Of a stretch of DNA of 53,000 nt, positions 3,283 through 42,407 are shown piece by piece. The notes under the pieces are model-generated. The model was not told the origin of the DNA and searched no databases. It saw only the letters and a program-made list of their open reading frames with translations. Position numbers and translations under genes: made by a program. Origin of the DNA: an uncultured Methanosarcinales archaeon (GTDB taxonomy: Archaea; Nanobdellota; Nanobdellia; Woesearchaeales; GW2011-AR9); NCBI GenBank assembly GCA_964344755.1, contig CAYFOH010000003.1, forward strand, positions 1 to 53,000, read 5' to 3'. Numbering within the stretch: position 1 is the first letter of the stretch; each line of letters starts with the position of its first letter.

Positions 3283-3305
3283 ATTAAATTTTATCAGGTA
3301 AATGA

Positions 3306-9294: not shown

Positions 9295-9315
9295 AGTCTA
9301 AACTTAATTTCGTCA

Positions 9316-9327
9316 TTTTTAAAATAA
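9316..9327 (-). promoter_or_regulatory. Putative TATA-like element for the flippase gene (start 9294)
   Basis: The minus strand reads TTATTTTAAAAA about 22 nt upstream of the GTG start, in a divergent 84-nt spacer. Confidence 0.3.
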
Positions 9328-9349
9328 CCTTACAGCAAAATCATAACTA

Positions 9350-9356
9350 TTATAAA
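9350..9356 (+). promoter_or_regulatory. Putative TATA-like element (TTATAAA) 23 nt upstream of ATG 9379
   Basis: Divergent spacer 9295-9378, second A/T element with the same spacing rule. Confidence 0.35.
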
Positions 9357-9378
9357 GAGATTTTTTACAAGATCTAGA

Positions 9379-12488: not shown

Positions 12489-13489
12489 GAATTTATTTTG
12501 ATGCCGATGTTGAAGAAAGAAAATACGAAGGTAGATCACAAACATCTATTTTGCTTAAGAGATTTTTAGAAAGTAAGGGGTACGAATTCGTTGATCATCC
12601 TAGGAAAGCTGATTTAATCCAAGTACATAGCAGTGGGATTTTTGCTTCTTTTAGAGCAGCTAAATGGAAAGAAAAATATAAAGTTCCAGTAATTTATACA
12701 TTGTATTCTATCTCTAAAACAGAACCTTTTAACCACTTTAGAAATCACTTCGCGCAGAGACATTACTTAAGAAAGAGAAAAACCAGTTTTGTTTTAAGTT
12801 ATTCCGCAATTTTGCCGTTAAAACTGAGGGGGTTTAACCTTAAAAAATTAGATGTTGTCGTGACCCCCTCAAAATTCGTGAAAAGAAGACTATTTAGAAA
12901 CACTAAGTTGATCAGAATTGGAATTGATTTAAATAAATTTAAACCGCTTGCTTTGCCAAAAAATGAAAAATTGAAAGTTGGTTATTTTGGTCATCCCAGT
13001 GCTTACAAAGGGGTTCTAGACTTTGCAAGAGCTTCAAATAAATTTCCTAGCCATTGGGAAGCTTATATTCATATTTCAGACGTTTCTAAAAGAATGTTAA
13101 GAACATTTAAGAAACTCTGTCCAAAAACAAAAATCTATGGGCATCTGGAAGATATTGCTAAAGCCTATAACGAAATGGATGTTATTGTTCTTCCCTACAG
13201 AAGCCATTTAGCTGGTGTAGCAAACCCGTTAGTATTAATCGAAGCAATGGCTTGTGGAAAAGCCATAATTACAACAAACTTTAGTTATCTAAAAGAAACT
13301 GTTAAAGATTCAGCTATTATTATAAAAACCTACTCACCTCACAGTATTGTTAAAGCCGTTAGAAAATTAGAAGATGAATCATTAAGAGATAGCCTGGGGA
13401 ATAAAGCAAGAAGGATTATAGAAGAAGAATATAGCCAACAAGAGATGCTAAAACAATACCTTGAATTGTATAGAAGATTTGAAAAATGA
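12485..13489 (+). CDS. GT-B fold glycosyltransferase (GT4-like)
   Basis: C-terminal VANPLVLIEAMACGKAIITTNF donor-binding region. ATGA overlaps on both sides. Confidence 0.65.
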   Translation: MRIYFDADVEERKYEGRSQTSILLKRFLESKGYEFVDHPRKADLIQVHSSGIFASFRAAKWKEKYKVPVIYTLYSISKTEPFNHFRNHFAQRHYLRKRKTSFVLSYSAILPLKLRGFNLKKLDVVVTPSKFVKRRLFRNTKLIRIGIDLNKFKPLALPKNEKLKVGYFGHPSAYKGVLDFARASNKFPSHWEAYIHISDVSKRMLRTFKKLCPKTKIYGHLEDIAKAYNEMDVIVLPYRSHLAGVANPLVLIEAMACGKAIITTNFSYLKETVKDSAIIIKTYSPHSIVKAVRKLEDESLRDSLGNKARRIIEEEYSQQEMLKQYLELYRRFEK

Positions 13490-14760
13490 GAACACCCCCT
13501 GAAATTAAAAAGATAATAAAATTATTCTCACAAAAAAAACTTTCCTATGTTTTGTTTAAGTGTGAACATATCTTTGATGGCCAGAATAAAAATCTTGATA
13601 TTCTATTTGAAACAAATCATGATTATCAAAAAGCTTCTACACTACTAAAAAAAGAAGGTTACGTTCTTTTTTTGCCAGAGAAATTAGAGAAATTTAAAGA
13701 AATGTATGTTAAATTTGACAATGTTGTTACAGCTATCCATTTACACCGAAAAATAGCTTGGCATGGCGTTGAAGCTATTAAGAAAAAAAGCGTTTTCAGA
13801 GACTCTAGGGCATTAGACAGCCATATTATTGTGCCTTCTCTAGAGGATCAACTATTAATTCACGCTACCCATGTTCTTTTTGAAAATTTTGCGATTAGCG
13901 AAAGAGAAAGAAAGTATGTTAATTTCGTTAAAATAAATAAAGAAATAGACTGGAAAAAAGAGTTCAATTCTTTTAAGAGAAGTTTTATCACGGGTAAGAG
14001 AATCCCTAAAAGAGCTATTTTAAATTGTTATATTAAAAGAACTGGTTTAAGGGAAGCTTTGTACTTGTTTACAAAATTTATGCGACTGATTCTTAGAAAA
14101 TTAAATCTTAGAAGAAGGGGAACTTTAATCTCTCTTATTGGAGTTAATGGCGCAGGTAAAAGTACAATAACAAGTGAGGTGGTTAGAGAACTTGGTCCCT
14201 TAATGAAGTTTTTGCACATTAAAGCGCACAAGAAATATTTTGGATGGCAACCTTTTACCCCTTGGGCCAAAATGTTATCTAAAAAAATGAAGAAAAAGAA
14301 AGTTTTTAAGAGCAGAGTTGAGGATAAAGAGGTTAAGGGATTTAGTTTATTTCAAGAAGGTTTATTTTTGTACAATTTCGTCGAATACCTGTTCAGATAT
14401 TGGATTAACATCTATCCAAAACTGAGAAAAGGTCACGTTGTGATAACTGATAGGTATTTCTATGACCTTTATGGACAGTATCCTTATGCCACTAGAAGTG
14501 TAGTTATCAACCTCTTAATGTTATTATTTCCTAAACCTGACAAGACCTTTGTTTTAGATGCCCCAACCCAAGAATTATTGCATAGAGAGAAAGAAGGAGA
14601 AGAAAGGAAAATCAAATCTGTTTCTTATTTAGAGAGTCAAAGAAGAAGATATCTAAGTTTAGGTTACCCTGTGATAAATACTGGCTGTGGGCTGTATGAT
14701 TCTGTTAAAGAAATTGTTAACAAAAGTTGGAAAAAGATTATTTGGAAGCAGAAGAATTAA
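13486..14760 (+). CDS. Two-domain protein: nucleotidyltransferase-like N-domain (NTP_transf_5-like) fused to a thymidylate-kinase-like P-loop domain; paralog of 29418-30668
   Basis: P-loop GVNGAGKST (nt 14140-14166), Tmk-like VVITDRY and LFPKPDKTFVLDAP motifs. A Lys-rich insert (KKMKKKKVFKSR) is followed by a hydrophobic helix. The N-domain has LDILFE...EGY...IHLHRKIAW and VPSLEDQLLIHATH. Confidence 0.5.
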   Translation: MRTPPEIKKIIKLFSQKKLSYVLFKCEHIFDGQNKNLDILFETNHDYQKASTLLKKEGYVLFLPEKLEKFKEMYVKFDNVVTAIHLHRKIAWHGVEAIKKKSVFRDSRALDSHIIVPSLEDQLLIHATHVLFENFAISERERKYVNFVKINKEIDWKKEFNSFKRSFITGKRIPKRAILNCYIKRTGLREALYLFTKFMRLILRKLNLRRRGTLISLIGVNGAGKSTITSEVVRELGPLMKFLHIKAHKKYFGWQPFTPWAKMLSKKMKKKKVFKSRVEDKEVKGFSLFQEGLFLYNFVEYLFRYWINIYPKLRKGHVVITDRYFYDLYGQYPYATRSVVINLLMLLFPKPDKTFVLDAPTQELLHREKEGEERKIKSVSYLESQRRRYLSLGYPVINTGCGLYDSVKEIVNKSWKKIIWKQKN

Positions 14761-15764
14761 ATTATTGTTTCCGTAGTTCTATATTCTGGAAAAGGTCTTC
14801 TATTGTCGCGTGGTGGAGAGACTAATTTATTGTAAACCTCTTGATTAAAAATGATATTTCCAACGTGGAAAGGCAAATTTAAAGACGAAAAACCTGACTT
14901 AAATTTTAATAATGCATCGTCCTCACTACCTCCACCGCCCAGATTCAAATACTTAAAACCATTTTTTTTTCCATAGAGGATGGCTTCCCACAACATTAAC
15001 CTTAATGGAGAACATTTAAACTTGTAATTCGTACAACCCAAATGATAATGTAGAATCTCGTGACCTTTTAACATAATAACACTAGATCCTACTTCACCTT
15101 CTTGATTTTCACAAAAAGATAAAAAGCAAGAAAGGTTAAAATGATCTTTAATAAAATTATGATTAAAAAAAAACTTTTTAGGAAGTTGATGTTTTTTCAT
15201 AGTAGAAAGATAGAGGCTAGTAAAAGTTTTTATTTCTTCCAAATTAGGACTTTCAACAAACTTCACTTTTGGAAACAGTTTCTTAGATTTATTTACGTAC
15301 CTCTTTGTGGTCTTGCTTAATTCGGCTTTAATTTTGTCCAATGGTTGAGTAAGATCAACAACAACAACCCTATTAACTTTAAAAACAGGAAATAGATTTG
15401 TGAAGACTTTATCGTTTTTTAAAAAAGGATTAAACCTGATATACTCAGAAACATAATTTTTCTCCTTGGCATACTTCTGATATTCCGCAAAAAATGAATT
15501 TAATGATTCTACCGAATTACCTTTAATTAACGGTCCCGTAAAACCGTAAGGACTTGAACAATCAAAATAATCTGTTAAAGGTATTTCCTTTACTAAATGG
15601 GGCCAAAATACTTTAATCTCATCGTCTTCCCAATAGATTGCCTCAACCTTACCATCAAAAAGTGAATGAAAAGCATGGCGAAAATAAAAATCGTTGTTAA
15701 AATTATTTTCTAAAAGTCTATCCCATTCTTCAGCTTCAGTTACTATCTTCATCTTTAACAGCAA
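14757..15764 (-). CDS. FemAB-like / Acetyltransf_6 GNAT-fold acyl- or aminoacyl-transferase
   Basis: C-terminal YLNLGGGGSEDDALLKFKSGFS motif and ~330-aa two-lobed layout, typical of FemAB-family proteins in glycan loci. Alternative start at 15752. Confidence 0.6.
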   Translation of the reverse strand: MLLKMKIVTEAEEWDRLLENNFNNDFYFRHAFHSLFDGKVEAIYWEDDEIKVFWPHLVKEIPLTDYFDCSSPYGFTGPLIKGNSVESLNSFFAEYQKYAKEKNYVSEYIRFNPFLKNDKVFTNLFPVFKVNRVVVVDLTQPLDKIKAELSKTTKRYVNKSKKLFPKVKFVESPNLEEIKTFTSLYLSTMKKHQLPKKFFFNHNFIKDHFNLSCFLSFCENQEGEVGSSVIMLKGHEILHYHLGCTNYKFKCSPLRLMLWEAILYGKKNGFKYLNLGGGGSEDDALLKFKSGFSSLNLPFHVGNIIFNQEVYNKLVSPPRDNRRPFPEYRTTETII

Positions 15765-16443
15765 CCATTATTGAATGTTTAACTTCTTTTTCCATATTCT
15801 GTAAACTTTTGATCAAATATTCTTGAGAAACGATTTTTAGGCCAGCTTCAGAAATTAAATTAAATAGATCCTTGTGATCAGCAAAATAAGTTGTCCCTTG
15901 ATTAGCAAATAAACCTTCTTTAACATTACCAACAGTGTCTTTATCAACTAAATTTTCTTTGCCATAACCCCAAGAATCTTTTAACAAGTGCCAAGAAAAG
16001 AATTTACCGCCTGATTTTAAAACACGTTTAACTTCACTATATATTTTGGAGTGATCAGAATAAGGTAAACACCAAGCGGTTGCTACATCAATTACAACAT
16101 CAAAACAATCATTAGAAAAAGGCAGTTGTCTAATATCTCCTTGTTTAAACTTTTCAGAAAAATTCTCAAAAGAGAAGCCATCTTCTTCTAAAAAATGTTT
16201 GCACTTCTTTAAAGCGGAAGGAGAGATATCAATTCCATAAACATCAAAACTTTCACGCATCAAAAACCAAACGTTGGCTCCTTGACCGACACCCAGCTCT
16301 AAAATTCTAATATTTTTTCTGTCTTCTTTATTTAACTTAAAATAATTTCTGCCAATAAAACGAACCAACTCCTCATTAGGATACTTACCCCAAGCTCTTG
16401 ACGCATGGATCTCTTCCCAGACATTATTGGAAATAGGTTGCAT
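15736..16443 (-). CDS. Class I SAM-dependent methyltransferase
   Basis: Motif I ILELGVGQGAN, acidic loop YGIDIS and DVVIDVAT. Confidence 0.75.
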   Translation of the reverse strand: MQPISNNVWEEIHASRAWGKYPNEELVRFIGRNYFKLNKEDRKNIRILELGVGQGANVWFLMRESFDVYGIDISPSALKKCKHFLEEDGFSFENFSEKFKQGDIRQLPFSNDCFDVVIDVATAWCLPYSDHSKIYSEVKRVLKSGGKFFSWHLLKDSWGYGKENLVDKDTVGNVKEGLFANQGTTYFADHKDLFNLISEAGLKIVSQEYLIKSLQNMEKEVKHSIMVAVKDEDSN

Positions 16444-19321
16444 TTAATGTTACCTCATCTTTTTTTAGATCTCTTGTTAGTTTTTTTCCTTTGAATTTAA
16501 AAAAGTTCTTAGCTTCTAGTCCTTGATTGGCCCTTTTAAAAATAAAATTTTCTTCTGTTACTAAATCTCCTTCTTTAAGATCCCTAGCAGCAACAATTCT
16601 TCTGATAATTAACTCTCTAGTAGGGATTTCAGAAGGCATGGGCTTTTTCTTTCCGTCCCCTAACAATTTCTCTGTCCGCCTAACTGCATCCACCATAGCT
16701 TTAAACTCGTCAGGTGTCAAAGATGCTTTATGATCAGGACCAGGCAGATTTTTATCAATAGTAAAATGTTTCTCTATATATACCGCCCCCAAGGCTCTAG
16801 CTGCTACAGGAGCTTCTGAACCTAATGAGTGATCAGAGAAACCTACAAGAGTGTTAAGGTTCTCCTTAAGATTTAACATTGCTCTAACATTAACCTCTTC
16901 ATCAGCACAAGGATAGTTAGAAGTACACTGACAAACGATGATTTGGTCATTCCCCTGGTTCCTAAGAATATCAACTGCCTTTTTCACTTCCTCAATGGTG
17001 GTTGTGCCAGAAGAAATTACCATAGGTAAATTAAACTTAGCAGTATATTTCAGTAAAGGATAATTAGTTATATCTCCAGAACCTACCTTCATTAAAGGAA
17101 TTTTTACTTCTTTAATTAAAAAGTCAACACTCTCTTTATCTTCCATAGTTGAGAAAAATATTAACCCCAGATCTTCAGCATATTTCTTCAACTCAAAGTG
17201 CCAGGGGTAAGGTAATTCTAATTTTTTGAGCATGTCAAATTGTGACTCTTGTGATTGTAAATTTTCTTTTTGATATTCAGCCATCTCTACATTGTTTAAA
17301 ATGATGTTTTCTGTTTTCCAAGTTTGAAACTTAACTGCATCTGCTCCAGATTGCTTAGCAGACAGAACCATCTTTTTGGCTAACTCTAAATCCTGGTTAT
17401 GGTTCACACCAATCTCTGCAACAATAAAACAAGGAGAATTTTTACTTAAGGTCCTCCCGGAAAAAGAAAATTCTTTCTCTTTACTTTCTTTGCTCAACAA
17501 AGCTTCTGCAATCTTAAAATCGTGGGGTTCGTCGATGTCGATAGACCTTTCCAAAGGCATAATTACAGCTTCGTGATTGTTCCCATAGAGTGTTTGGTTC
17601 TCAGTTAATAGTTTGGTTTTAACAGCATACACTGCACCATTTTCAATATAATATTCTGGAAGATCTTGACTCCTTTTCAAAAAATCTTGTGGATTTATAA
17701 ACTCTACCTTATTATTGTTTAACTTAGCCATATAGGCAGGGTGAGTAGTGACTGGAGAAAAAGTTTCCGCGGAGTCAGCCCCATGAATCACCTTCAAAAT
17801 AACTTTGTCTATGTCTTCAACATCTCTTAAAGGGGAGGTTGGTTGCAGGACGACAACAATGTCTGGAGAATAGCCTTCGTTCTCTAATGTCCTTAGAACA
17901 TGGTTTAGTACTGGAACAGTAGGAGTGTCATCTTGCGCCAATTCTTTTGGTCTGTCTATGACTTCGGCATTTTCCCTTAATGAAACTAATTTTATGTCTT
18001 CATCATCTGTAGAAACTACTGTTCTAGTTATAAATTTAGAATTCTTGGACTGCTTAATGGCATAAGAAATAAGCGGGCTCCCAACCAAGTCTTTAATATT
18101 TTTCTTAGGAATTCTTTTCGACCCACCCCTGGCAGGAATTATTGCTAAAATTTCTTTTTCTTGTTTAGAAGAAGATAAAGATTGTTTAACAACATCACAA
18201 ACCTCTTCAATATCTTCTTCAGTTAAACTAACAGAACAGGGAACATTTAATGTTCTGTCCCATAATTCTTTAGCTTTTTCAATTCGGTAACTTTGACAAC
18301 CTAAGTAAGGTTTTTGTTCATGAGCTAGACTCCAAGCTAATCTTGCTTGGATATTGTTCCTAGCCAGAGTTTCTTTAACTTGGTTCCTTAACTCTTTATT
18401 AGGAAATTGTAAAGAATAAAACCAACAGTTTGATTTAGAATATTCCGGTTGAACAGCTACTTTAACTGGACTATCGGCTAACAATCTTTTATACGTTTCC
18501 AGATTCTCCCTTTTTTTCTGAATAAATCCAGTTAATTGTTCAAATTGGGCTACACCAATAGCTGCTGCAACGTTAGACAAACGATAATTATAACCTATTT
18601 CTTCATGGACATAATCGTCGGAACCTTTCTTGGCCTGGTTTGTTAAATATAAAGCTTTGTCAGCCAGTTCCTTATTGTTTGTTACTAACATTCCGCCTCC
18701 ACCAGTTGTCATAATTTTGTTACCATTAAAACTGAAACAGGCAATATCCCCAGAGTTGCCAACCCTTTTGCCTTTATATTCTGACCCCAAAGCTTCACAA
18801 GCATCTTCAATTATTCTAAGGTTATATTTTTGACAAATCTCTAACAAGGGATCCATATCAACAGAAACACCAAACAAATGTACTGGCACTACTGCTTTAA
18901 CTTGTCTTCCTGTTTTTTTATTATAACATTTACCTTCTCTTGATTCACACTCCTCTTCTAAAAAACGTTTTACCTTTTTAACATCCAAATTATAATATTG
19001 ATCACTGTCCATAAAAACTGGTTCAGCACCAAGATACTTTACAGCATTAGCACTAGCAATAAAAGTGAGGGTAGGTACTAAAACTTCATCGTTACAGCCG
19101 ACACCACAAACTCTTAGAGCAAGTTGTAAAGCTGCTGTTCCATTAATACAGGCTACGGCATATTTCAAACCAACATAATTGGCAATTAATTCCTCAAATC
19201 TTTTTACATAACTTCCAACAGAAGAAACCCATTCTGTGTCTAAACACTCCTTAACATATAACCATTCGTTTCCTTTAATGGTAGGCACACTTAACGGAAT
19301 GAACTTTTCCATTATTCCCAC
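16424..19321 (-). CDS. Triple fusion: LegC/PseC-like aminotransferase + CMP-nonulosonate synthetase (NeuA/LegF-like) + nonulosonate synthase (NeuB/LegI-like, with SAF domain)
   Basis: aa 1-383 (nt 18173-19321): DegT fold, FSFNGNKIMTTGGGG. aa 388-612 (nt 17486-18160): ILAIIPARGGSKRIPKKN cytidylyltransferase motif. aa 622-965 (nt 16427-17458): CFIVAEIGVNHNQD, GFSDHS and a C-terminal SAF-like tail. No stop codons between the modules. Confidence 0.9.
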   Translation of the reverse strand: MGIMEKFIPLSVPTIKGNEWLYVKECLDTEWVSSVGSYVKRFEELIANYVGLKYAVACINGTAALQLALRVCGVGCNDEVLVPTLTFIASANAVKYLGAEPVFMDSDQYYNLDVKKVKRFLEEECESREGKCYNKKTGRQVKAVVPVHLFGVSVDMDPLLEICQKYNLRIIEDACEALGSEYKGKRVGNSGDIACFSFNGNKIMTTGGGGMLVTNNKELADKALYLTNQAKKGSDDYVHEEIGYNYRLSNVAAAIGVAQFEQLTGFIQKKRENLETYKRLLADSPVKVAVQPEYSKSNCWFYSLQFPNKELRNQVKETLARNNIQARLAWSLAHEQKPYLGCQSYRIEKAKELWDRTLNVPCSVSLTEEDIEEVCDVVKQSLSSSKQEKEILAIIPARGGSKRIPKKNIKDLVGSPLISYAIKQSKNSKFITRTVVSTDDEDIKLVSLRENAEVIDRPKELAQDDTPTVPVLNHVLRTLENEGYSPDIVVVLQPTSPLRDVEDIDKVILKVIHGADSAETFSPVTTHPAYMAKLNNNKVEFINPQDFLKRSQDLPEYYIENGAVYAVKTKLLTENQTLYGNNHEAVIMPLERSIDIDEPHDFKIAEALLSKESKEKEFSFSGRTLSKNSPCFIVAEIGVNHNQDLELAKKMVLSAKQSGADAVKFQTWKTENIILNNVEMAEYQKENLQSQESQFDMLKKLELPYPWHFELKKYAEDLGLIFFSTMEDKESVDFLIKEVKIPLMKVGSGDITNYPLLKYTAKFNLPMVISSGTTTIEEVKKAVDILRNQGNDQIIVCQCTSNYPCADEEVNVRAMLNLKENLNTLVGFSDHSLGSEAPVAARALGAVYIEKHFTIDKNLPGPDHKASLTPDEFKAMVDAVRRTEKLLGDGKKKPMPSEIPTRELIIRRIVAARDLKEGDLVTEENFIFKRANQGLEAKNFFKFKGKKLTRDLKKDEVTLNATYFQ

Positions 19322-20304
19322 ACTCCATTGTTCTTAATATCTTCAACATACCACTGCATAGTTTTCTGGAATCCTTCTTCCAAAGATACCTCTGGATGAA
19401 ACCCTGTCAACTCCTTAATTTTTGTTGTGTTTGGACATCTTCGGTCAACGGATCCTAACGGAGGTTCTACTAACTTAAGTTCAGGGTGGTGATCTAAACC
19501 ATCCAGAAGGATTTTTACACCCCTTAAAATTTTACTTTCCTCAGAACTATTTCCAACGTGAAGGATTTCGTTTTTAGTCTTGTCTGAACTCATAGCTAGT
19601 ACTGTTTGTTTTATAGCATCAGAAATATAACAGAAAGCTCTCGTTTGATTATATCCATATACTAAAAAAGGATCTTCCTTGTTGACGATTCTTTTAACTA
19701 CTTCAGGCAAAAAATGAGCATAACCCATCCGGGGACCGTAAATGTTATGATACCTAACAATAACATATTCATAATTGTCCTTAGAATTAAAAATAACTAA
19801 TTGTTCTCCAACAAGTTTACTGGAAGCATAAGACATTCTAGGGTTGTAGATATCTTTTATAGATAAGGGAACTTTCTCGTTAGTTGGTACTTGGACAATC
19901 CCTAAATCAAAACTACTAGCGTAAGTTTCACAACTAGAACTAAACAATATACGTTTACATCTATTCTCTTTAACCAGTTTAATAACATTCATTGTTGTGA
20001 TTATGTTAACGTCAAGAACTAATGCTGGATTGTTCATACAGTGTTTAACTCCAATAATGGCTGCAAGATGATAAACATGGTCATAATATTGCCAAACCTT
20101 TTCTTTCATCTCTTCTAAATTCATTAAATTAACCTGCTGGAATTGAACATTAGGTCTTTCTATTAATTCCTTGAACAAAGTGTCTATTCGTCCTCTTCTT
20201 AAATTGTCAGCCAGAACAAGCTGGTTTTCTGAATTTTTAGAAAGATGATTAGCTAAATGGTATCCCACAAACCCTGCTGCACCAGTAATCAATATTTTAC
20301 TCAT
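19312..20304 (-). CDS. Extended SDR NAD-dependent nucleotide-sugar epimerase/dehydratase
   Basis: ILITGAAGFVGYHL Rossmann motif, SSSCE and YASSK (YxxxK) catalytic elements. 8-nt overlap with the upstream dehydrogenase. Confidence 0.8.
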   Translation of the reverse strand: MSKILITGAAGFVGYHLANHLSKNSENQLVLADNLRRGRIDTLFKELIERPNVQFQQVNLMNLEEMKEKVWQYYDHVYHLAAIIGVKHCMNNPALVLDVNIITTMNVIKLVKENRCKRILFSSSCETYASSFDLGIVQVPTNEKVPLSIKDIYNPRMSYASSKLVGEQLVIFNSKDNYEYVIVRYHNIYGPRMGYAHFLPEVVKRIVNKEDPFLVYGYNQTRAFCYISDAIKQTVLAMSSDKTKNEILHVGNSSEESKILRGVKILLDGLDHHPELKLVEPPLGSVDRRCPNTTKIKELTGFHPEVSLEEGFQKTMQWYVEDIKNNGVWE

Positions 20305-21667
20305 TCAAATGACCTTTTCCTATTCCTATTACTTTGTGTCCCCTCTCCTTTAAGACTGTTATTTTAGCATCATCTAGGATGTTAAACGTATCTACAATTA
20401 GGCTCTGGGGCTTTAAGCTTTGTGAAAACTTGTTTGGATCTAATTCAAGGTACTCTTTATGTCTAACTGCTAAAACAAGAATATCAAAATCTTGATAATT
20501 TTGGCCACAAAAAACATCTATTTTGTCATGATAAGTTTCTATAATAGGATCAGTTACCAAACAAGTAGCACCTTCCTTTTTAAGAGCATCACATAAAATT
20601 TTGGAGGGACTGTTCCTAGTATCAGCTACATCCGGCATATAAGAATAACCTAAAATAAGAACCTTTTTGTCGGTCAGGTCAATATGTTGTTTAATTCTGT
20701 TAAGCGTGTGCAAAGGCATTTTGTCATTAATAGCAATTGCTTGCAAAGTTAAAGGCAATTTTTTTCCAGAATAAAAATGGTTAGCACCCCATTGAGCAAA
20801 CAAAGCATCTTTAGGTAAGCAATAACCGCCAACCCCAAAACCAGGATTCATGATGTTGTCATGGGTCCCTTTCCTTTTCTTAATTGCTTGAATAACTTCA
20901 AATAGATTGATTCCCATGTCTTCAGCCAACTCTGTCCATTCTTGGATAAAAGCAATATTCATCGCACGATAGCTATTTTCTAAAACTTTAGCTAATTCTG
21001 TACTCTGTGAATTGTTAAAGTAAGTAAGAGGATAGTTTTTTGTGTCAATGATATTTTCAAAAAATTCTTGTGCTCTGTCTTTGGCTTCTTGACAATTAGC
21101 AGAGTAATTTCGCCAAAAATGAGTTATTGATTTAAGATAATGTTTACCAGGCATGACTCTTTCATAAGAATGACAGATTAAAGGTTTGGAAGAAATGTTT
21201 CTTTTAAAAAACTCTTGTTTAACTGTTTTTTCAACAATATTTTTTGTTGTTCCTGGGGGTACAGTTGTCTCAATAATAACTAAACAATCTGGTTTAATTT
21301 TTTGAGCAAACGTTTTGATAGCAATCTCAAATCTTTTTATTGTAACTTTAGGTTCTTCATAAGGAGATTTTTTGTCAACACTTAAATCGACATCGACAAT
21401 TACAATGTCAGCATCTTTGTACTCATCTGGATTGTTGCTAGCTTTAAGGTTCTTGATTTCTAATACTGCTTCCTTTAATTTTTTTTTTAAAGAGTCGTCT
21501 TCACAGAAAAAGAGTAGTTCTCCTTCGTTAATGGCAGTTATTTTTCTTTTGTCTATGTCAACACCTACTACTCTATAAATTGGTTTCTGGTTCTTTCTAG
21601 CACTGGCTACTGCAGTAGCCATGGCTGAACCAACAAATCCCAGACCTTGCACACATACTTTCTGCAT
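20297..21667 (-). CDS. Nucleotide-sugar 6-dehydrogenase (UDP-glucose/GDP-mannose dehydrogenase family; WecC/TviB/WbpO-like)
   Basis: N-terminal GLGFVGSAMA NAD fold and catalytic-Cys motif GVGGYCLPKD. 456 aa. Confidence 0.85.
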   Translation of the reverse strand: MQKVCVQGLGFVGSAMATAVASARKNQKPIYRVVGVDIDKRKITAINEGELLFFCEDDSLKKKLKEAVLEIKNLKASNNPDEYKDADIVIVDVDLSVDKKSPYEEPKVTIKRFEIAIKTFAQKIKPDCLVIIETTVPPGTTKNIVEKTVKQEFFKRNISSKPLICHSYERVMPGKHYLKSITHFWRNYSANCQEAKDRAQEFFENIIDTKNYPLTYFNNSQSTELAKVLENSYRAMNIAFIQEWTELAEDMGINLFEVIQAIKKRKGTHDNIMNPGFGVGGYCLPKDALFAQWGANHFYSGKKLPLTLQAIAINDKMPLHTLNRIKQHIDLTDKKVLILGYSYMPDVADTRNSPSKILCDALKKEGATCLVTDPIIETYHDKIDVFCGQNYQDFDILVLAVRHKEYLELDPNKFSQSLKPQSLIVDTFNILDDAKITVLKERGHKVIGIGKGHLNE

Positions 21668-21687
21668 GCATTTAGTCCTAAAATTTG

Positions 21688-21696
21688 TTTATATAA
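21688..21696 (-). promoter_or_regulatory. Putative TATA box (TTATATAAA on minus strand) ~21-29 nt upstream of start 21667
   Basis: 78-nt spacer upstream of the dehydrogenase-SDR-fusion-methyltransferase-FemAB gene string. Confidence 0.4.
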
Positions 21697-21745
21697 GGTT
21701 TACTAAAGTCAAATCTAGAGAAAAGGATCTTTATTATCTTGAACA

Positions 21746-22144
21746 TTAAGGAGAATATTTTTCTGGATTAAGAATTAATTCATAAACAGTTTTTTCCGAG
21801 ATGTATTCAGGAAGATCACTACCGGGATTATGACTAAGAACCAATCTAAAACCATATTCTAACATAACTAACTCAGAAAGTCTGGTGTGAGGTACACAAG
21901 TTTTAAAACTAAGCCCCTCAATGGAAAAAAAATCTTTGGGTGTCATTTTTACTCCTTCTCTAACATTTGTCTCATCACTCATCAGCTCAACAAGAATATC
22001 AACACTTTCTGGAGCATAAGGCTCATTATCAGAAACTTTTCTATTCACAATCTTTGAATCATTAAGGTACTTTATTGCTGCCTGCAAATAGAGATATTGG
22101 GTGCCCCTATAAGACGGCCCAAAAAAAACTTGAATTTCTTTCAT
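21746..22144 (-). CDS. Hypothetical protein (132 aa)
   Basis: Clean ORF between two pathway genes with short spacers on both sides. No motif recognised. Confidence 0.4.
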   Translation of the reverse strand: MKEIQVFFGPSYRGTQYLYLQAAIKYLNDSKIVNRKVSDNEPYAPESVDILVELMSDETNVREGVKMTPKDFFSIEGLSFKTCVPHTRLSELVMLEYGFRLVLSHNPGSDLPEYISEKTVYELILNPEKYSP

Positions 22145-22175
22145 TTTAAGTGCAAAAAAGAGTTAGTTTATAATA

Positions 22176-23285
22176 TTATCCCTGCTTAAACCTAAACTCG
22201 TCATTTTCCAAATGACCTAAAACTTCTTCGTACTTCTCCCACTGTCCAATGTCAAACCATTGATTAGACCTGATTGGAAAAACACCTACTTTAATTCCCC
22301 TCTTGATTAAATCTGTCAACAAGTCAGTTGTATCATATTTCTTGTCTCTAGGAATATATTGCAAAACTTCTGGTTCTAAAACGTACATCCCTGTGTTTAT
22401 CAGATGATCATATTCTGGCTTCTCATGGATTGATTCTACTGTTCCTTCCTCTTTAAGATTTAAAACACCATAAGGTACTTTAGTGTTCTTTAAAGCTCCA
22501 ACAACAGTTACTTGGTTCTCGCTGTTTTTATGAAAATTTAAAATTGCAGTATAATTGGCATCAATCAAAATGTCACAATTAGAAACAAAAAAAGTTTCAT
22601 TTAATTGATCTTTAAGATAAGCTAAACCACCAATAGTTCCTAGTTTTTTGCCAGCAAGTTCATCTTCATTAATGAAATTAATCTGACAACCGTGATCAAT
22701 ATAAGAAAAATAAGTTTTAACCATCTCGGCCATATAATTTACACTGATATGAAAATTTTTTAGTCCGTAGGATTGGAAATTTTCTATTATTCTTTGAATG
22801 ATTGCTTTTGAACCAACTGGTGCCAAAGGTTTTGGTAAAATACCCGTTAGAGGTCTTAATCTCGTACCCTCGCCGCCAGCCATAATTACCACTGGATTTG
22901 ATAAGAGATCTGAAAAAGATTTCTCAATTAAATCAAGATAAGAAATAACATTAACTATTTTATCCGCAGAATCAATAATTGGGAGGTGCCTGATCTCTTT
23001 TTGGGTCATTCTTTCCTTAATAGTTTCTTTAGATACTAACTCATGGGAAAATATTTTAGTTGGGTTAGGATTCATAAAATTAGCAACCTTTTCGTTTAAA
23101 GGAACTTTTTTCAAAATCGATCTCCGAACGTCACCATCTGTTACACATCCAACTAACTTTTTTTGATAGTTCACCACAAAAAGAGTACTAATTCTAAACT
23201 TATCCATATTAGCCATGGCCTGCTTAAGTGTGATGTCCTGATTAATCAACATACCTTGAAAATCTTTCATTGTTCGCCCCAACAA
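22176..23285 (-). CDS. CBS-pair + sugar-phosphate nucleotidyltransferase (PtmE-like HexNAc-1-P nucleotidyltransferase candidate)
   Basis: The N-terminal ~125 aa has CBS-pair character (VGCVTDGDVRR, IRHLPIID). It is followed by VIMAGGEGTRLRPLT (GxGxRL NTP_transferase motif). The likely true start is the ATG at 23270 (ATGA overlap with the upstream stop). Confidence 0.8.
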   Translation of the reverse strand: MLGRTMKDFQGMLINQDITLKQAMANMDKFRISTLFVVNYQKKLVGCVTDGDVRRSILKKVPLNEKVANFMNPNPTKIFSHELVSKETIKERMTQKEIRHLPIIDSADKIVNVISYLDLIEKSFSDLLSNPVVIMAGGEGTRLRPLTGILPKPLAPVGSKAIIQRIIENFQSYGLKNFHISVNYMAEMVKTYFSYIDHGCQINFINEDELAGKKLGTIGGLAYLKDQLNETFFVSNCDILIDANYTAILNFHKNSENQVTVVGALKNTKVPYGVLNLKEEGTVESIHEKPEYDHLINTGMYVLEPEVLQYIPRDKKYDTTDLLTDLIKRGIKVGVFPIRSNQWFDIGQWEKYEEVLGHLENDEFRFKQG

Positions 23286-24427
23286 AGCTTTTTCTTCAGT
23301 AAAGATTGAAAATCTTCAATTTTTTCTAGTTCTTGTGATAAGTAGTTACTAAAATCCCCGTTACCATAAGGAGATTTGACGTCTTTAATTTCTTCAAGAA
23401 ATTCATCGCTCAATGCTTTATTAATAGCTGGAACTATCTCTTCTTCCGAACAGTCAATAATATTCTTACAACGTAATCTTCCTTTTTGGCGATTACCAAC
23501 ATTTATGGTAGGTTTTCTAAAAGCAGGAGTTTCAATAATTCCACTAGAAGAGTTGCCGATTACAACATCGCATAAACGCATTAAGTTAAGATATCTCTCA
23601 TGCCCTAAATTATGAAAAAAGTAGACGTCGGGTTTGTTTTTAGCATATTCTCTTAACTTCTGGCTAATCAAAGAGCCGCCAAAGTCTTGGTTTGGTGAAG
23701 TGATTATTTGAATAGAATCAAAACTCTTAAGCCCAGAAATAAAAAAGTTCACTTGTTCTTTTATCTTTTCTACTTCTAAGGTTGTGGGGTGATATGTTAT
23801 CAAAAATATAGGTTTGGAATTGTTCGCAATTTTAAGTTGATCAAACAGCTCCAACTTTGATAAAACAGGAATTTTCTTTATGTTCTCTATACAAGGATCA
23901 CCACAATTAAAAACACGAGCAGGGTCTTCACCTAGTCTAATAAGGTTCTTGTAGCTGGGAGTTGAACCAGGAAAATGTAAGTGAGATAATTTGGTTAAAG
24001 CATGTCTTATTTGTTCATCTATTGCACCTTCTGAAACGTCCCCTCCACTGATATGGACTATTGGGACATTCATAACAGTAGCTACACCAGCAGCTGCCAG
24101 AAGTTCGTATCGATCACCTAAGAAAATCATTAAGTCTGGGCTTATCTTAGTGAAAAGATCCGCTAATTCTTTAGTTAAAATAGACATGGAAACTGCTAAA
24201 TCTCTTTTAGAAAAATGATCTTTGTCAGGTAATATTTTTATTTTGTGGACATTCTTAATTCCTGCTTTTTCAATCTCTTGAATAGTATAACCATGATGCT
24301 TAGAAAGATGAGAACCTGTGGCTACAACATGTATTTCGAAAGAGTTGTTTTCCCCTAACTTTTTAATAGGCCAATAAAGCAGATCAAAGGACATCCTACC
24401 TTCTGTCAGTACCACGACTCTTTTCAT
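23267..24427 (-). CDS. neuC: Hydrolysing UDP/GDP-HexNAc 2-epimerase (NeuC/LegG family)
   Basis: GDRYELLAAAGVATVMNVPIVHISGGDVSEGAIDEQIRHALTKLSHLHF matches the NeuC-type 2-epimerase core. Confidence 0.85.
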   Translation of the reverse strand: MKRVVVLTEGRMSFDLLYWPIKKLGENNSFEIHVVATGSHLSKHHGYTIQEIEKAGIKNVHKIKILPDKDHFSKRDLAVSMSILTKELADLFTKISPDLMIFLGDRYELLAAAGVATVMNVPIVHISGGDVSEGAIDEQIRHALTKLSHLHFPGSTPSYKNLIRLGEDPARVFNCGDPCIENIKKIPVLSKLELFDQLKIANNSKPIFLITYHPTTLEVEKIKEQVNFFISGLKSFDSIQIITSPNQDFGGSLISQKLREYAKNKPDVYFFHNLGHERYLNLMRLCDVVIGNSSSGIIETPAFRKPTINVGNRQKGRLRCKNIIDCSEEEIVPAINKALSDEFLEEIKDVKSPYGNGDFSNYLSQELEKIEDFQSLLKKKLCWGEQ

Positions 24428-24447: not shown

Positions 24448-24458
24448 ACTTATATAAG
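24448..24458 (-). promoter_or_regulatory. Putative TATA box (CTTATATAAGT) ~21-31 nt upstream of neuC start 24427
   Basis: Divergent 92-nt spacer 24428-24519. Confidence 0.4.
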
Positions 24459-24491
24459 ATTTGCTAAAGTAAGAACTAGTATACGTTAGGT

Positions 24492-24499
24492 TTTTATAG
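24492..24499 (+). promoter_or_regulatory. Putative TATA box (TTTTATAG) ~21-28 nt upstream of ATG 24520
   Basis: Same divergent spacer. The geometry mirrors the minus-strand element. Confidence 0.35.
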
Positions 24500-24519: not shown

Positions 24520-25965
24520 ATGAAAAAAAATTGGGACAGTTTAAATGTAAAACAGAGTTTTGAAGAGCAGTTAAAAATAGATGAATTTCCTGTGTGGTGG
24601 TTTTATAATAGAATTTTTACTAGACATGTAATGCCTTCTCCTGTAAACACGTTTAAAGATATGGAAGGGAAAATAAAGTTAAGCTATATAAAAAGAAAAA
24701 AACTGGATTTATCTTCTAAAATTCTAGAAAATTTACTTTATCTAAGGGAACAAAAGAAACTGAATTATTTTAAAGGTAAATCTCATCATAGTAAAGAAAA
24801 AAAGGTACTCTTTCTCAGTTATTCTAACTATTTAGACAAGGAAGGAAAACTATTTCGAATACAAAAAATAGTAGATAATCTCCCCAACTCCCAAATTGTT
24901 TTTGTTGACCCACTTTCTTCATTTGATTATAAGAAGCTAAAAGGCAAGAAAACCATTTATGATTATTACGACAATACGATCAAAAAAGAGAGCAAAAAAT
25001 CAGCCCAAGAATTATTTGAAAAGTGGCAGAGATATCAGGAAGAACCATTGGAAAACTGGCAATACTTAAAATATGGTTTTAGACTATTCTTCTCTAAAAA
25101 ACTGTTAGCTCTTTTAGTTACATATTACAAACTCTTTGAAAAGGCTCTTGAAAACACTAAAGTTGTTGTTATAACCGGACAAAGCAGTATTTTTGAAAAA
25201 TGTTTAATTGCTGTAGCTAGCAAGAAAAAGGTCCCCGTTTTAAGATTACAACATGGTGTTGGGGAAGAATTAGTCACCCCTGATATCTTTGATAATGTCT
25301 ACAAGTTAGTTTTTAGTGAAAAAGTTAAGAAAGATCTAGAAAAATTAGGTTATCCTTCTGAAAAAGTTAAAGTTGTTGGGCCAGTAATCTTTGACGATAT
25401 AGTCAATTATGTTAAACCCAAAAAGAAAGAGAGAAATGTTCTTATCGCAACACCTGGAACCTGGGCCAGTGGAATACTAGAAACAAAAACTTATTTCTCT
25501 AGATTAAAAAAGATAATCAACAGAATGAAAGAAGTCCATCTAATCATTAAATTACATCCACGAGAAACTAAAAATCACTGGCAAAAGTACAAAGAAGAGT
25601 TTCCTAATATTAAAATATTTGAGGGAAAAATATCTAGAAAAGAATTTTATGACTTGATCCAGTGGTCTGATGTATTTATCACATTTGGTTCTACAGCTTC
25701 CATTGAGGCGATGATTGTTAAAAGGCCCGTAGTAAATATAAACTTATTAGACGACAAATTTGTTACAGGTTGGATTGAAGAAAAAAAGATAACGATTAAT
25801 TGTCAGTATTATGAAGATGTAGGGAGGTTTGTTGAACAGGCTTTTAGTGATTATAATTCTTATTTTAAGAAGCAAGAGAACTTTTTAAAAGAAAAATGTG
25901 GGAAGTTAGATGGGAAAGCTTACCAAAGAGTTGTAGATATTGTTAAATCACTCCCTTCCACTTAG
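24520..25965 (+). CDS. GT-B-like transferase of uncertain specificity (TagF/capsule-polymerase-like or sialyltransferase-like, HP motif)
   Basis: VLIATPGTWAS (compare the TagF-family APTWR motif), IIKLHPRE (HP motif) and FITFGSTASIEAMIVKRPVV. Divergently transcribed from the nonulosonate operon. Confidence 0.4.
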   Translation: MKKNWDSLNVKQSFEEQLKIDEFPVWWFYNRIFTRHVMPSPVNTFKDMEGKIKLSYIKRKKLDLSSKILENLLYLREQKKLNYFKGKSHHSKEKKVLFLSYSNYLDKEGKLFRIQKIVDNLPNSQIVFVDPLSSFDYKKLKGKKTIYDYYDNTIKKESKKSAQELFEKWQRYQEEPLENWQYLKYGFRLFFSKKLLALLVTYYKLFEKALENTKVVVITGQSSIFEKCLIAVASKKKVPVLRLQHGVGEELVTPDIFDNVYKLVFSEKVKKDLEKLGYPSEKVKVVGPVIFDDIVNYVKPKKKERNVLIATPGTWASGILETKTYFSRLKKIINRMKEVHLIIKLHPRETKNHWQKYKEEFPNIKIFEGKISRKEFYDLIQWSDVFITFGSTASIEAMIVKRPVVNINLLDDKFVTGWIEEKKITINCQYYEDVGRFVEQAFSDYNSYFKKQENFLKEKCGKLDGKAYQRVVDIVKSLPST

Positions 25966-26300: not shown

Positions 26301-27224
26301 TTATAAGTCTTTTCGAAAATTAGTGTTCATCTTCGTCAATAACATAAATCCCCTCTCAGAGGCTAAATCTTTAATCTTACTTAATTTTTCTTCTCTAAAA
26401 GAAGCAGGATCAACTTGTGGACATTTCTCTCTAGATTTGACTTCCTCCAAAACAGGTAAGGTTTCTTTATCTAAAAATCTAGCTATTTCATTTACCTCTT
26501 TATCTGGATTAACAATTAAATCTGTTAAAGTTAAAGAATAAATTCTTTCTTTTTGCTCCATTGTTAATTTCTTAAAGGTCTTTTCTTCTTCTTTCTTCAA
26601 ATAATAAATCGACTTTATTACCCTGTCCATCTCATTAGCAGCGAGGTATTCCTCTTTCCAACTTACAGCATACCAAGGAATGTTTTCTTCAAACACTAAA
26701 CTAAACAACTTAGGATCTTCCCCCCACCTTTTTCCCCACCCCCTATTAAACCAAGAATAAACCAAATCAATTGGGTTCCTAATAATTCTAATAACTTTGG
26801 CTTCTGGAAAGGTCTCTAATAAAAAATCCATAAATTGTAAACATTCATGAGCAATAAAGGGAAAATAATTTTCTTTTACTTTTTCTAGATTTTCTGGTTC
26901 AGAACAACGTTGTAAATATTTTTCTTGATGGGGAGAATTGTAAACTGAAGACTTGTCTTCTCTACGGAAATTTAATCCTCTGCCAACAATTAAGTCATAA
27001 CAATTGTTGTCAAACTGAGTTTGTAAAAGAACTTTTCCTGTGTTTTTATCTAAAAGGTTTTGTTTAACTAAAAAAGGGATTTGTTCAACTAAGGGGTTAT
27101 AATTGATATGATCAATCTCTTTTATTGTGGATAAAAAATTAGCTAACAAAAACTTACCAGATCTTGTTAAACCCTCTACAAGAAGAATTTTCTTTGTTAA
27201 CAACACTGGACGAGATAATTTCAT
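26301..27224 (-). CDS. Sulfotransferase-like protein (divergent)
   Basis: P-loop-like 5'-PSB candidate EGLTRSGKFLL and 3'-PB-like RIIRNPIDLVYSW. 307 aa. Confidence 0.5.
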   Translation of the reverse strand: MKLSRPVLLTKKILLVEGLTRSGKFLLANFLSTIKEIDHINYNPLVEQIPFLVKQNLLDKNTGKVLLQTQFDNNCYDLIVGRGLNFRREDKSSVYNSPHQEKYLQRCSEPENLEKVKENYFPFIAHECLQFMDFLLETFPEAKVIRIIRNPIDLVYSWFNRGWGKRWGEDPKLFSLVFEENIPWYAVSWKEEYLAANEMDRVIKSIYYLKKEEEKTFKKLTMEQKERIYSLTLTDLIVNPDKEVNEIARFLDKETLPVLEEVKSREKCPQVDPASFREEKLSKIKDLASERGFMLLTKMNTNFRKDL

Positions 27225-32048: not shown

Positions 32049-32099
32049 AGCATTTTTTATTAGTAATCTTTTTAAACCTTCATTACCTCCCGCTAGTTA

Positions 32100-32390
32100 A
32101 TGACATCTCGGGAAAATGAATTGAAGAACATTCGACCAAAATTAGTTAAAATTCTTAAAAAAAACGGAATAAAAAAAGCAGGTATATTTGGTTCTTTCGC
32201 TAGAGGGGAACAAAGAAAGAGAAGTGATGTTGATATCCTTATAGATTCAAATGCAAGTTTGCTTAAGTTGGTTAAATTAGAACAAGAACTAGCAAAGGCT
32301 TTGAATAAAAAAATTGATCTGTTAACATACGAAGGCCTACATCCTTTGCTTAAGGAAAAAATTCTGAATGAGGAAATAAGAATTCTATGA
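32100..32390 (+). CDS. mntA: MNT-type nucleotidyltransferase antitoxin (MntA-like)
   Basis: GIFGSFARGEQRKRSDVDILI (GSxxRG...DxD minimal nucleotidyltransferase motif). 96 aa, 4-nt overlap with the downstream HEPN gene. Confidence 0.85.
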   Translation: MTSRENELKNIRPKLVKILKKNGIKKAGIFGSFARGEQRKRSDVDILIDSNASLLKLVKLEQELAKALNKKIDLLTYEGLHPLLKEKILNEEIRIL

Positions 32391-42388: not shown

Positions 42389-42407
42389 ATTAAACTCTAT
42401 AAAAAGA

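Follow-up and report, generated by a model that had tools for sequence, protein, structure and literature searches.

The 53,000 nucleotides of contig CAYFOH010000003.1 analyzed here, referred to as the window, carry a minus-strand locus at 14757-24427 that is predicted, from its protein families and gene order, to work as a legionaminic-type nonulosonic acid cassette. The cassette is non-canonical at two steps, those served by the LegB 4,6-dehydratase and the LegH/NeuD acetyltransferase. At the LegB position the locus has a 6-dehydrogenase and a short-chain dehydrogenase/reductase (SDR) whose subfamily profile best matches UDP-glucuronate decarboxylase (UXS), and a FemX-like transferase and a methyltransferase would serve in place of LegH/NeuD. 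As a whole, this archaeal (DPANN-like) operon set would make a legionaminic-type 5,7-diamino ulosonic acid and activate it with cytidine monophosphate (CMP). This reading of the complete chain is tentative and is held at slightly less than even confidence.

An earlier reading of the sequence (the original prediction) had placed a legionaminic-acid-type locus without the canonical N-acetyltransferase in this region. Its span is exact, the locus is real, and all of its enzyme family assignments were reproduced by profile searches. It listed ten genes; there are eight minus-strand open reading frames (ORFs), and ten is the number of catalytic modules when a triple fusion is counted as three. The same locus is carried by a European Nucleotide Archive metagenome contig of project PRJEB17505, on which the fusion is called as a protein of 962 amino acids (aa). 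The GTG at 19321 was rejected as the start of the fusion; the ATG at 19312 is the start called on that contig. The ORF of the CBS-nucleotidyltransferase reaches back to a TTG at 23285, and it is called as 364 aa on contig L001. The stop codon of the NeuC-type gene overlaps the start codon of the nucleotidyltransferase gene (ATGA), and successive overlaps of 8, 1, 20 and 17 nucleotides link the five genes that run from the dehydrogenase to the FemX-like protein. Because of these overlaps and the single TATA-like box ahead of them, the dehydrogenase, SDR, fusion, methyltransferase and FemX-like genes are apparently one translationally coupled unit. Coordinates and profile scores are given in Table 1.

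The legionaminic acid pathway of Campylobacter jejuni consists of PtmE, LegB, LegC, LegH, LegG, LegI and LegF, and a seven-gene "LLPSF" cassette underlies the TIGR04180 and TIGR04181 models. Of the seven core functions of the legionaminic cassette, four are represented in the window and a fifth, the CMP-ulosonate synthetase, probably so; the two that are missing are LegB and LegH/NeuD. The preference of the original prediction for the legionaminic over the pseudaminic route was upheld, as the LegC and NeuB models win and both a NeuC-type hydrolyzing epimerase and a PtmE-like architecture are present. The aminotransferase domain of the fusion scores above the LegC cut-off (TIGR04181) and reaches 262 bits with the PseC model, under its cut-off of 423.5. 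The 2-epimerase scores 70 bits with the non-hydrolyzing WecB model, under the cut-off of 210; the model that it passes, TIGR03568, does not distinguish NeuC from LegG. The NeuB-type domain clears the NeuB_NnaB model (TIGR03569) by a narrow margin and scores 290 bits with the PseI model, under the cut-off of 340. Its best solved structure is a PseI (8h2c, 226 bits), followed by the Neisseria meningitidis NeuB at 178 bits, with no LegI structure among the matches. The only specific equivalog match of the cytidylyltransferase domain is PseF, at 164 bits, below the cut-off of 206. The CBS-nucleotidyltransferase was assigned from its architecture, two CBS domains and an NTP_transferase domain, which is that of PtmE, and the likeness to Campylobacter PtmE that had been suggested was thus found.

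The step at the LegB position was read differently from the original prediction, which assumed a 4,6-dehydratase role for the SDR. The SDR scores 111.6 bits with the LegB model (TIGR04180) against a cut-off of 475, its subfamily profile is nearest to UDP-glucuronate decarboxylase, and a 6-dehydrogenase always lies upstream of it. The original prediction would fall if the SDR were no 4,6-dehydratase and the genome had none elsewhere; the SDR is not LegB-like, and no LegB-, PglF- or PseB-type enzyme lies in the 53 kb of the genome that was covered. The sugar may therefore be something other than a 9-carbon legionaminic derivative. The SDR shares 26% identity with the SDR half of a LegB-LegC fusion, and it belongs to a subfamily that is well populated at 42-65% identity to it. 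Members of this subfamily score 390-534 bits with the subfamily model and LegB-type SDR domains score 82-101 bits. Among solved structures, the subfamily profile matches human UXS1, a UDP-glucuronate decarboxylase, best (181 bits), followed by the uncharacterized structure 8vr2 (174 bits), on which a literature search found nothing relevant, UDP-glucuronate 4-epimerase (160 bits), dTDP-glucose 4,6-dehydratases (124-140 bits), UAXS (135 bits) and ArnA (114 bits). The curated model NF008872 gives 79 bits, under its cut-off of 294. The SDR has the motifs S-S-C-E-T-Y, YxxxK and HNIYGPRMG, and the subfamily as a whole has an invariant Ser, Ser/Thr-Ser/Cys-Glu, YxxxK and HN[IV]YGPRMG. Residues S124-C125-E126 align with T118-S119-E120 of UXS, Y159xxxK163 and GPRM are present, and the Glu of the T-S-E motif is invariant across the subfamily.

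The partner enzyme has as its best solved relatives the N-acetylhexosamine (HexNAc) 6-dehydrogenases 4r16, 3g79 and Cap5O, followed by CalS8, and its GGYCLPKD motif contains the catalytic Cys. Each of the six loci that hold a close SDR homologue has a 6-dehydrogenase gene directly upstream of the SDR gene and in the same orientation: the window, L011, L015, L016, L018 (Verrucomicrobiota) and L019 (Nanoarchaeia). The paired dehydrogenases belong to more than one subfamily. A LegC-family aminotransferase directly follows the SDR in three of the six (the window, L011 and L018, where it scores 470 bits against a cut-off of 420). In addition, the metagenomic protein P0049 is an SDR of the same subfamily (390 bits; 40% identity to the window SDR) fused to a LegC-family aminotransferase, which makes it likely that the product of the SDR is the substrate of the aminotransferase. 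The SDR, in turn, is likely to act on the uronate formed by the dehydrogenase. We give about even weight to the proposal that the dehydrogenase and SDR feed LegC by way of a uronate. No LegB-, PglF- or PseB-type dehydratase was found in the window or in the 23 kb of L011 examined. The GDP-mannose dehydratase at 36566-37618 was rejected as a hidden LegB, since it passes the gmd equivalog cut-off (434 bits against 415). The genome scan with the SDR alignment rested on generic motifs, with close homologues in two of 80 loci. When metagenomes were scanned with the SDR sequence by itself, the one locus that came up (28% identity) was irrelevant.

The original prediction also proposed that the FemAB-like protein and the methyltransferase may add a non-acetyl N-acyl or aminoacyl group and a methyl group. 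The protein is FemX-type by profile, fold and a Phe-Lys pair; the proposed decorating role is supported by context. The PF02388 match passes on the whole-protein score, with no single stretch passing alone, and a single-sequence search of the PDB returned noise only, mainly RuvB-like proteins. A family profile was built from 13 relatives found by word-indexed search. Among solved structures it matches FemX of Weissella viridescens best (E 5e-19, 72 bits), followed by an aminoacyl-tRNA-dependent peptide synthase, FmhB and FemA. The family is large, since the profile matches 22,092 proteins (50%-identity representatives) at E<=1e-3, of which 3,460 reach E<=1e-30. The AlphaFold model had a predicted local distance difference test score (pLDDT) of 33 from the single sequence and 90.8 with the 13 homologues. 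Foldseek of the model placed FemX first (template modeling (TM) score 0.71-0.72, probability 1.00), then FmhB, Sba18/Sbb17, FemA and aminoacyl-phosphatidylglycerol synthases; the top matches of the modeled fold are all aminoacyl-tRNA-dependent. Residues F284-K285 are invariant in the 13 homologues and align with F304-K305 of FemX (VFKHVF segment), a pair that we take to be the catalytic core of FemX. The model thus confidently predicts a FemX-type tandem-GNAT fold (GNAT, GCN5-related N-acetyltransferase), and we infer an aminoacyl-tRNA as the donor.

The genomic neighbors of the FemX-like family point to amino sugars. The FemX-like gene shares a cluster with a DegT-type aminotransferase gene in five of six homologue contexts and adjoins it in three. 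In the P0123 context it lies between NeuC-type and DegT genes, with NeuB and CMP-transferase genes upstream. The P0124 context has the order NeuB, FemX-like, methyltransferase, NTP-transferase, DegT, and the window methyltransferase is 34% identical (E 2e-31) to the one that follows the FemX-like gene there (L007). The P0131 and P0130 contexts are bacillosamine-type, with DegT and a PglF-type dehydratase and without NeuB, and in P0131 DegT adjoins the FemX-like gene. No aminotransferase was found in the region examined around P0128 (L013). No peptidoglycan genes were found near the FemX-like gene; its neighbors are sugar aminotransferases, dehydratases and nonulosonate genes in five of the six loci. 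On balance, the FemX-like enzyme probably acylates the 4-amine of a nucleotide sugar, for which we have moderate confidence. Next to the FemX-like gene in L005 (7432-8505), L007 (7910-8971) and L009 (8989-9960), there is also a protein of 320-360 aa without a Pfam match (39-58 bits mutually), which does not occur in the window.

The absence of a left-handed beta-helix (LbH) acetyltransferase, noted in the original prediction for this locus, holds for the whole window. No Hexapep or PglD_N match was found among the window ORFs of at least 100 aa scanned with Pfam, and no PglD-like LbH match at E<=1 was found in any six-frame ORF of at least 70 aa when five PglD-like domains were searched. A GNAT at 40325-40858 was rejected as a substitute for LegH; its PseH match is weak (27 bits, cut-off 93) and it lies in a separate module. 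The independent metagenome contig L011 keeps the order NeuC, CBS-NTP-transferase, dehydrogenase, SDR and LegC...NeuB fusion at 43-66% protein identity, and because it recurs there the gene order is not due to chance. The L011 fusion has a PglD-type LbH domain in place of the cytidylyltransferase domain of the window, and neither the FemX-like gene nor the methyltransferase gene occurs in L011. The pattern is therefore reciprocal: L011 has the LbH domain without the FemX-like and methyltransferase genes, and the window has these two genes without the LbH domain. L011 also carries, at 1939-5273, HisF- and HisH-like genes and a 410-aa protein conserved in L018 (1019-2242; 359 bits), none of which is in the window. 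A HisF/HisH-like gene pattern accompanies acetamidino formation on such sugars.

The pathway proposed from these results would begin with the CBS-nucleotidyltransferase, which would form nucleoside diphosphate (NDP)-linked N-acetylglucosamine (GlcNAc). The 6-dehydrogenase would convert NDP-GlcNAc to an NDP-HexNAc-uronate, and the UXS-like SDR would oxidize C4 and decarboxylate to give an NDP-4-keto-pentosamine, a substitute for 4,6-dehydration by LegB. The LegC domain would then aminate C4, and the FemX-like enzyme would transfer an amino acid from an aminoacyl-tRNA to the new 4-amine, which would substitute for acetylation by LegH/NeuD. The methyltransferase may methylate the added amino acid, most simply at the alpha-amine. 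The NeuC-type enzyme would remove the nucleotide and epimerize C2, the NeuB domain would condense the product with phosphoenolpyruvate (PEP), the cytidylyltransferase domain would form the CMP-sugar, and a divergently transcribed 481-aa glycosyltransferase would transfer it. The product may be an 8-carbon analogue of legionaminic acid, because uronate oxidation, decarboxylation and transamination would be carried through the NeuC- and NeuB-type steps; we regard this as possible, at a confidence below even. The most specific form of the proposal is doubtful: a CMP-activated 5-acetamido-7-(N-methyl-aminoacyl)amino-3,5,7-trideoxy-oct-2-ulosonic acid, with carbon 6 of GlcNAc lost and not deoxygenated, N7 acylated via tRNA and the FemX-like family providing a general route to the aminoacylated amino sugars of microbial glycans.

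The 481-aa protein is a candidate for the transferase of the CMP-sugar. Its C-terminal 150 aa match the BFO_1060 family domain at 75 bits (cut-off 200) and TIGR04396 at 50 bits (cut-off 125), both sub-threshold, and a homologue lies at the edge of the syntenic contig L011 (133 bits).

Several observations weigh against the proposed 8-carbon, aminoacylated product. The LegC, NeuC and NeuB modules score as ordinary members of their families, and aminotransferases fused to LegB-type SDRs share about 50% identity with the LegC domain. The LegC-type aminotransferases that accompany the dehydrogenase-SDR pair were considered as a clade of their own and this was rejected, as they are spread over two LegC subclades, in both of which enzymes fused to LegB-type SDRs also occur. 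The dehydrogenase-SDR pair occurs without a nearby aminotransferase in L015 and L019, which fits an SDR that completes a UXS-type reaction unaided. GDP-mannose 4,6-dehydratase shares the T-S-E motif, so a dehydratase is compatible with the sequence alone. No 8-carbon 5,7-diamino ulosonic acid was found in a literature search. The genome was covered for the 53-kb window, and LegB- or LegH-type genes could lie elsewhere in it; in C. jejuni, legH is outside the leg cluster. A Fem-type fold alone is no proof of a tRNA donor. Fusions to PglD-type LbH acetyltransferases, in either order, recur within the FemX-like family, and other members are fused to GNAT and GT2 domains or are tandem duplicates (P0134-P0140, P0148, P0165, P0241, P0246, P0268, P0138, P0144, P0176). 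Because of the frequent PglD-type fusions, the family would usually work beside a sugar acetyltransferase and not replace one. On the proposed reading, the methyltransferase here, or the acetyltransferase domain in the fusions, would modify the added residue. Just as well, the PglD fusions may point to a FemX-like enzyme that works alongside a sugar N-acetyltransferase.

Three other explanations were weighed. The one ranked as the main rival is the picture given by the original prediction, a true 9-carbon legionaminic acid. The 4,6-dehydratase would be the SDR in a divergent form or a gene elsewhere, the product would be an N7-(N-methyl-aminoacyl) derivative and the dehydrogenase would serve another glycan residue. 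The FemX-like evidence fits this explanation equally, the LegC, NeuC and NeuB modules pass or reach their family cut-offs, and the SDR occupies the LegB position, directly upstream of LegC, with Ser/Thr-x-Glu and YxxxK motifs like those of GDP-mannose dehydratase. The LegB score of 112 bits against 475 and the position of 4,6-dehydratases some 40-57 bits under UXS with the subfamily profile argue the other way. The pairing with a 6-dehydrogenase in six of six loci, one of which has housekeeping neighbors only, is hard to explain for a dehydratase, and the 53 kb contain no other candidate. We consider the 9-carbon product rather unlikely. A variant with a smaller share of our confidence, and very improbable, is that the SDR oxidizes C4 of the NDP-HexNAc-uronate without decarboxylation, so that a 4-amino-4-deoxy-hexuronate would lead to a 9-carbon ulosonic acid in which C9 is a carboxylate too. 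Such 4-oxidation is the route to the 4-amino-4-deoxy-hexuronates of gougerotin/blasticidin-type nucleoside antibiotics, and the second-best characterized structural relative of the SDR, UDP-glucuronate 4-epimerase, holds a 4-keto-uronate without loss of CO2. A free 4-keto-hexuronate, however, is a beta-keto acid and tends to lose CO2. The Glu that is invariant in the T-S-E motif is a typical feature of decarboxylases and dehydratases, unlike epimerases, and UXS is the best match.

It is also conceivable, although unlikely, that the window encodes an ordinary pathway to Leg5Ac7Ac (or a 5-N-formyl form) with LegB and LegH outside it, and that the dehydrogenase, SDR, FemX-like enzyme and methyltransferase serve other glycan sugars and are merely co-located. 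The window is rich in unrelated sugar genes, including five more DegT-type genes, a GDP-mannose dehydratase, sulfotransferases, a formyltransferase and many glycosyltransferases. The unlinked legH of C. jejuni, the dehydrogenase-SDR pair that stands alone in L019 and the FemX-like homologue of L013 also suit mere co-location. It is difficult to reconcile with five overlapping genes behind one promoter, with the reciprocal occurrence of the LbH domain and the FemX-like and methyltransferase genes in the window and L011, with the P0049 fusion of SDR to LegC-type aminotransferase, and with the clustering of the FemX-like gene with DegT-type aminotransferases in five of six contexts.

Of the characterized systems, C. 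jejuni and the LLPSF cassette share with the window the CBS-nucleotidyltransferase, the LegC-family aminotransferase, the NeuC-type hydrolyzing epimerase, the NeuB-type synthase and, probably, the CMP-transferase. Unlike them, the window has the 6-dehydrogenase and UXS-like SDR at the LegB position, it has a FemX-like gene and a methyltransferase without an LbH acetyltransferase, and its LegC, CMP-transferase and NeuB are fused in one 962-aa protein. The dehydrogenase, SDR oxidative decarboxylase and DegT-type 4-aminotransferase resemble, by analogy of their logic and adjacency, Ugd/ArnA/ArnB of UDP-4-amino-arabinose formation and CalS8/CalS9/CalS13 of calicheamicin aminopentose formation, where 4-amino-pentoses are made by this dehydrogenase, decarboxylase and aminotransferase logic. 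In contrast to those systems, the substrate here is probably an N-acetylhexosamine and the product would continue to NeuC- and NeuB-type enzymes, and a literature search found no precedent for a decarboxylated 4-amino product entering such steps.

The FemX-like protein agrees with W. viridescens FemX (PDB 1ne9, 4ii9) in its tandem-GNAT form without a coiled-coil arm, its length of about 335 aa and its Phe-Lys pair. FemX carries out alanyl-tRNA-dependent transfer to UDP-MurNAc-pentapeptide, and its acceptor is a nucleotide-linked amine, as proposed for the window protein. The two differ in that they share 15-18% identity and that the window gene lies among sugar aminotransferase and nonulosonate genes instead of peptidoglycan genes. 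The streptothrisamine peptide synthases Sba18 and Sbb17 (PDB 9wqw-9wqy) are Fem-type enzymes whose acceptor is the amine of an amino sugar, and Foldseek relates them to the window protein at E of about 1e-12 and TM 0.62-0.74. Unlike the window protein, they come from secondary-metabolite pathways and have about 290 aa, and the family profile matches them weakly, at 35 bits. A literature search found no description of Fem-type enzymes in legionaminic, pseudaminic, nonulosonate or bacillosamine pathways. The Clostridium difficile type B flagellin glycan locus has the FemAB-like CDR20291_0244 with an FdtB-like sugar aminotransferase, genes proposed for flagellin modification (PMC5207246). This likeness is by description, and that locus differs in that it is bacterial, has a 3-amino sugar context and is not a nonulosonate locus.

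Among archaea, Halorubrum sp. PV6 has a legionaminic acid that is N-formylated (PMC6137143). Both loci are archaeal nonulosonate loci clustered with glycosylation genes and with a non-acetyl N-acyl group, which in the window is implied. They differ in that the window lineage is DPANN-like with about 33% G+C and that a FemX-like enzyme is implied in place of the Halorubrum formyl group; the formyltransferase of the window is about 23 kb away in a separate module. N-methyltransferases that use S-adenosylmethionine (SAM) are known in legionaminic loci, namely Legionella pneumophila ORF8 (PMC13306086) and C. jejuni PtmH, and they methylate a 5-acetimidoyl group. The window methyltransferase, likened to these by description, likewise lies inside a legionaminic-type locus. 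Its target must differ from theirs, because the window is without amidotransferase or HisH/HisF-like genes.

Table 1. Features of the legionaminic-type locus and adjacent promoter-like elements.
Feature	Position	Strand	Length and evidence
FemX-like tandem-GNAT transferase	14757-15752	minus	331 aa; PF02388 35.7 bits (cut-off 24)
Class I SAM-dependent methyltransferase	15736-16443	minus	235 aa; PF13847, PF08241, PF13649 at 64-68 bits
LegC/CMP-transferase/NeuB triple fusion	16424-19312	minus	962 aa
Fusion domain: NeuB/LegI-type PEP-condensing ulosonate synthase and SAF	16424-17431	minus	TIGR03569 401.8 bits (cut-off 399.65), PF03102 300 bits
Fusion domain: CMP-ulosonate synthetase (cytidylyltransferase)	17570-18145	minus	PF02348 (CTP_transf_3) 98 bits (cut-off 22.6)
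Fusion domain: LegC-family pyridoxal-phosphate (PLP) aminotransferase	18188-19312	minus	TIGR04181 474.8 bits (cut-off 420), PF01041 353 bits
Extended SDR, UXS-like subfamily; candidate NDP-HexNAc-uronate 4-oxidase/decarboxylase	19312-20304	minus	330 aa
NDP-N-acetylhexosamine 6-dehydrogenase	20297-21667	minus	456 aa; TIGR03026 251 bits (cut-off 190)
TATA-like box CTTATATAAAC	21687-21697	minus	upstream of dehydrogenase; heads five-gene unit
Orphan ORF	21746-22144	minus	132 aa; own TATA-like box
TATA-like box	22166-22176		upstream of orphan ORF
PtmE-like sugar-1-phosphate nucleotidyltransferase	22176-23270	minus	364 aa from ATG; N-terminal PF00571 CBS x2 and PF00483 135 bits
NeuC/LegG-type hydrolyzing NDP-HexNAc 2-epimerase	23267-24427	minus	386 aa; TIGR03568 404 bits (cut-off 236), PF02350 249 bits
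Palindromic TATA-like box CTTATATAAG	24449-24458		centered about 26 nt before NeuC start codon
TATA-like box	24490-24499		
Candidate ulosonate glycosyltransferase	24520-25965	plus, divergent	481 aa; beyond the coordinates of the original prediction

The original prediction regarded the host as a probable archaeon, and this is supported by the promoter pattern and the nearest labeled relatives. The motif TTWWAWA begins 28-32 nucleotides before a start codon 14 times, against an expectation of about 0.4 matches given its density in the window. Of the 26 genes with an intergenic gap before them, 12 have the motif at -34 to -24 and three have Shine-Dalgarno-like motifs, which are thus rare. The fixed distance of the boxes and the scarcity of Shine-Dalgarno motifs indicate archaeal TATA promoters on leaderless transcripts, and a scan of the window for sigma-70 promoters and terminators gave background levels. 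The nearest taxon-labeled relatives are Candidatus Woesearchaeota, with two-domain CMP-transferase and NeuB fusions at 46-51% identity, and a metagenome-assembled genome of Nanoarchaeia, with an SDR at 41%. G+C is about 33%. The serine hydroxymethyltransferase (SHMT) of the window is, however, of bacterial type and closest to bacterial enzymes. Overall, the sequence supports an archaeal, DPANN-like origin.

The 132-aa orphan had no match in Pfam, NCBIfam or the PDB, is missing from the syntenic L011 and has no homologue among any of the loci compared. A 134-aa ORF of L016 was considered as its relative and rejected; that ORF instead matches the WbuC-like cupin of the window at 41936-42388. In L016, a UXS-like SDR is followed by the 134-aa cupin, DegT and a GNAT (7998-11099), an arrangement to be compared with window 40325-42388. 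The two cupins are 37% identical over 73 residues and both lie beside DegT and GNAT genes, with the DegT proteins only 31% identical.

The window holds other glycan genes. An Arn-like module at 40831-49245 (minus) contains a GT2 glycosyltransferase (ArnC-like, 58 bits), a formyltransferase (ArnA N-domain, 79 bits), two PMT_2/Agl23-like GT-C proteins, a 642-aa unknown, the WbuC-like cupin and a DegT protein with a sub-threshold match to the LegC family (360 bits; cut-off 420). This module is without its own dehydrogenase or decarboxylase and might share the pair of the nonulosonate operon. SHMT and FolD genes lie beside it at 50003-52023 (plus), and in the Woesearchaeota contig L012 there is a parallel, FolD and 5-formyl-tetrahydrofolate cyclo-ligase inside a legionaminic-type cluster. 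Sulfotransferase genes flank the locus at 10541-11362 and 26301-27224 (both minus), with another in L011 (848-1867), which suggests that the glycan is sulfated. Two paralogues of about 420 aa, at 13486-14760 (plus) and 29418-30668 (minus), lie among the glycan genes and have a nucleotidyltransferase-like N-terminus and a thymidylate-kinase-like P-loop C-terminus; a weak NTP_transf_5 match is found in the second one only. A 766-aa protein at 98-2398 (plus) has two tandem DegT-type aminotransferase domains (PF01041, 737 bits over two stretches), and its gene precedes those of an RmlD-like reductase and a methyltransferase. L011 has the same reductase, but with a tandem methyltransferase beside it. 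At 6175-7812 (plus), one protein joins a PfkB-type domain that resembles heptose-7-phosphate kinase to a GmhA-type SIS isomerase domain; this fusion also occurs in L011 and indicates a heptose pathway. Lastly, a small nucleotidyltransferase/HepT-like toxin-antitoxin pair lies at 32093-32731, between purA and a DegT gene; the annotation comes from the identical contig L002.

On many microbial surfaces, nonulosonic acids are the outermost sugars and the ones that determine recognition. To our knowledge, they vary in stereochemistry and in their N-acyl groups, on a skeleton that always has nine carbons. If the proposed pathway is correct, a dehydrogenase/decarboxylase pair in the place of the dehydratase would shorten the chain of a sialic-acid-like sugar, and this would complement the longer-chain CMP-ulosonic acids that were recently reported (bioRxiv 10.64898/2026.04.20.719630). 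It would also mean that tRNA-dependent Fem-type enzymes have been recruited to the amines of nucleotide sugars, and the aminoacylated amino sugars long known from O-antigens and capsules, which are genetically unexplained, would gain a candidate family of enzymes. For the organism, it would imply that host-dependent archaea of the DPANN type invest in elaborate, sulfated, sialic-acid-like surface glycans.

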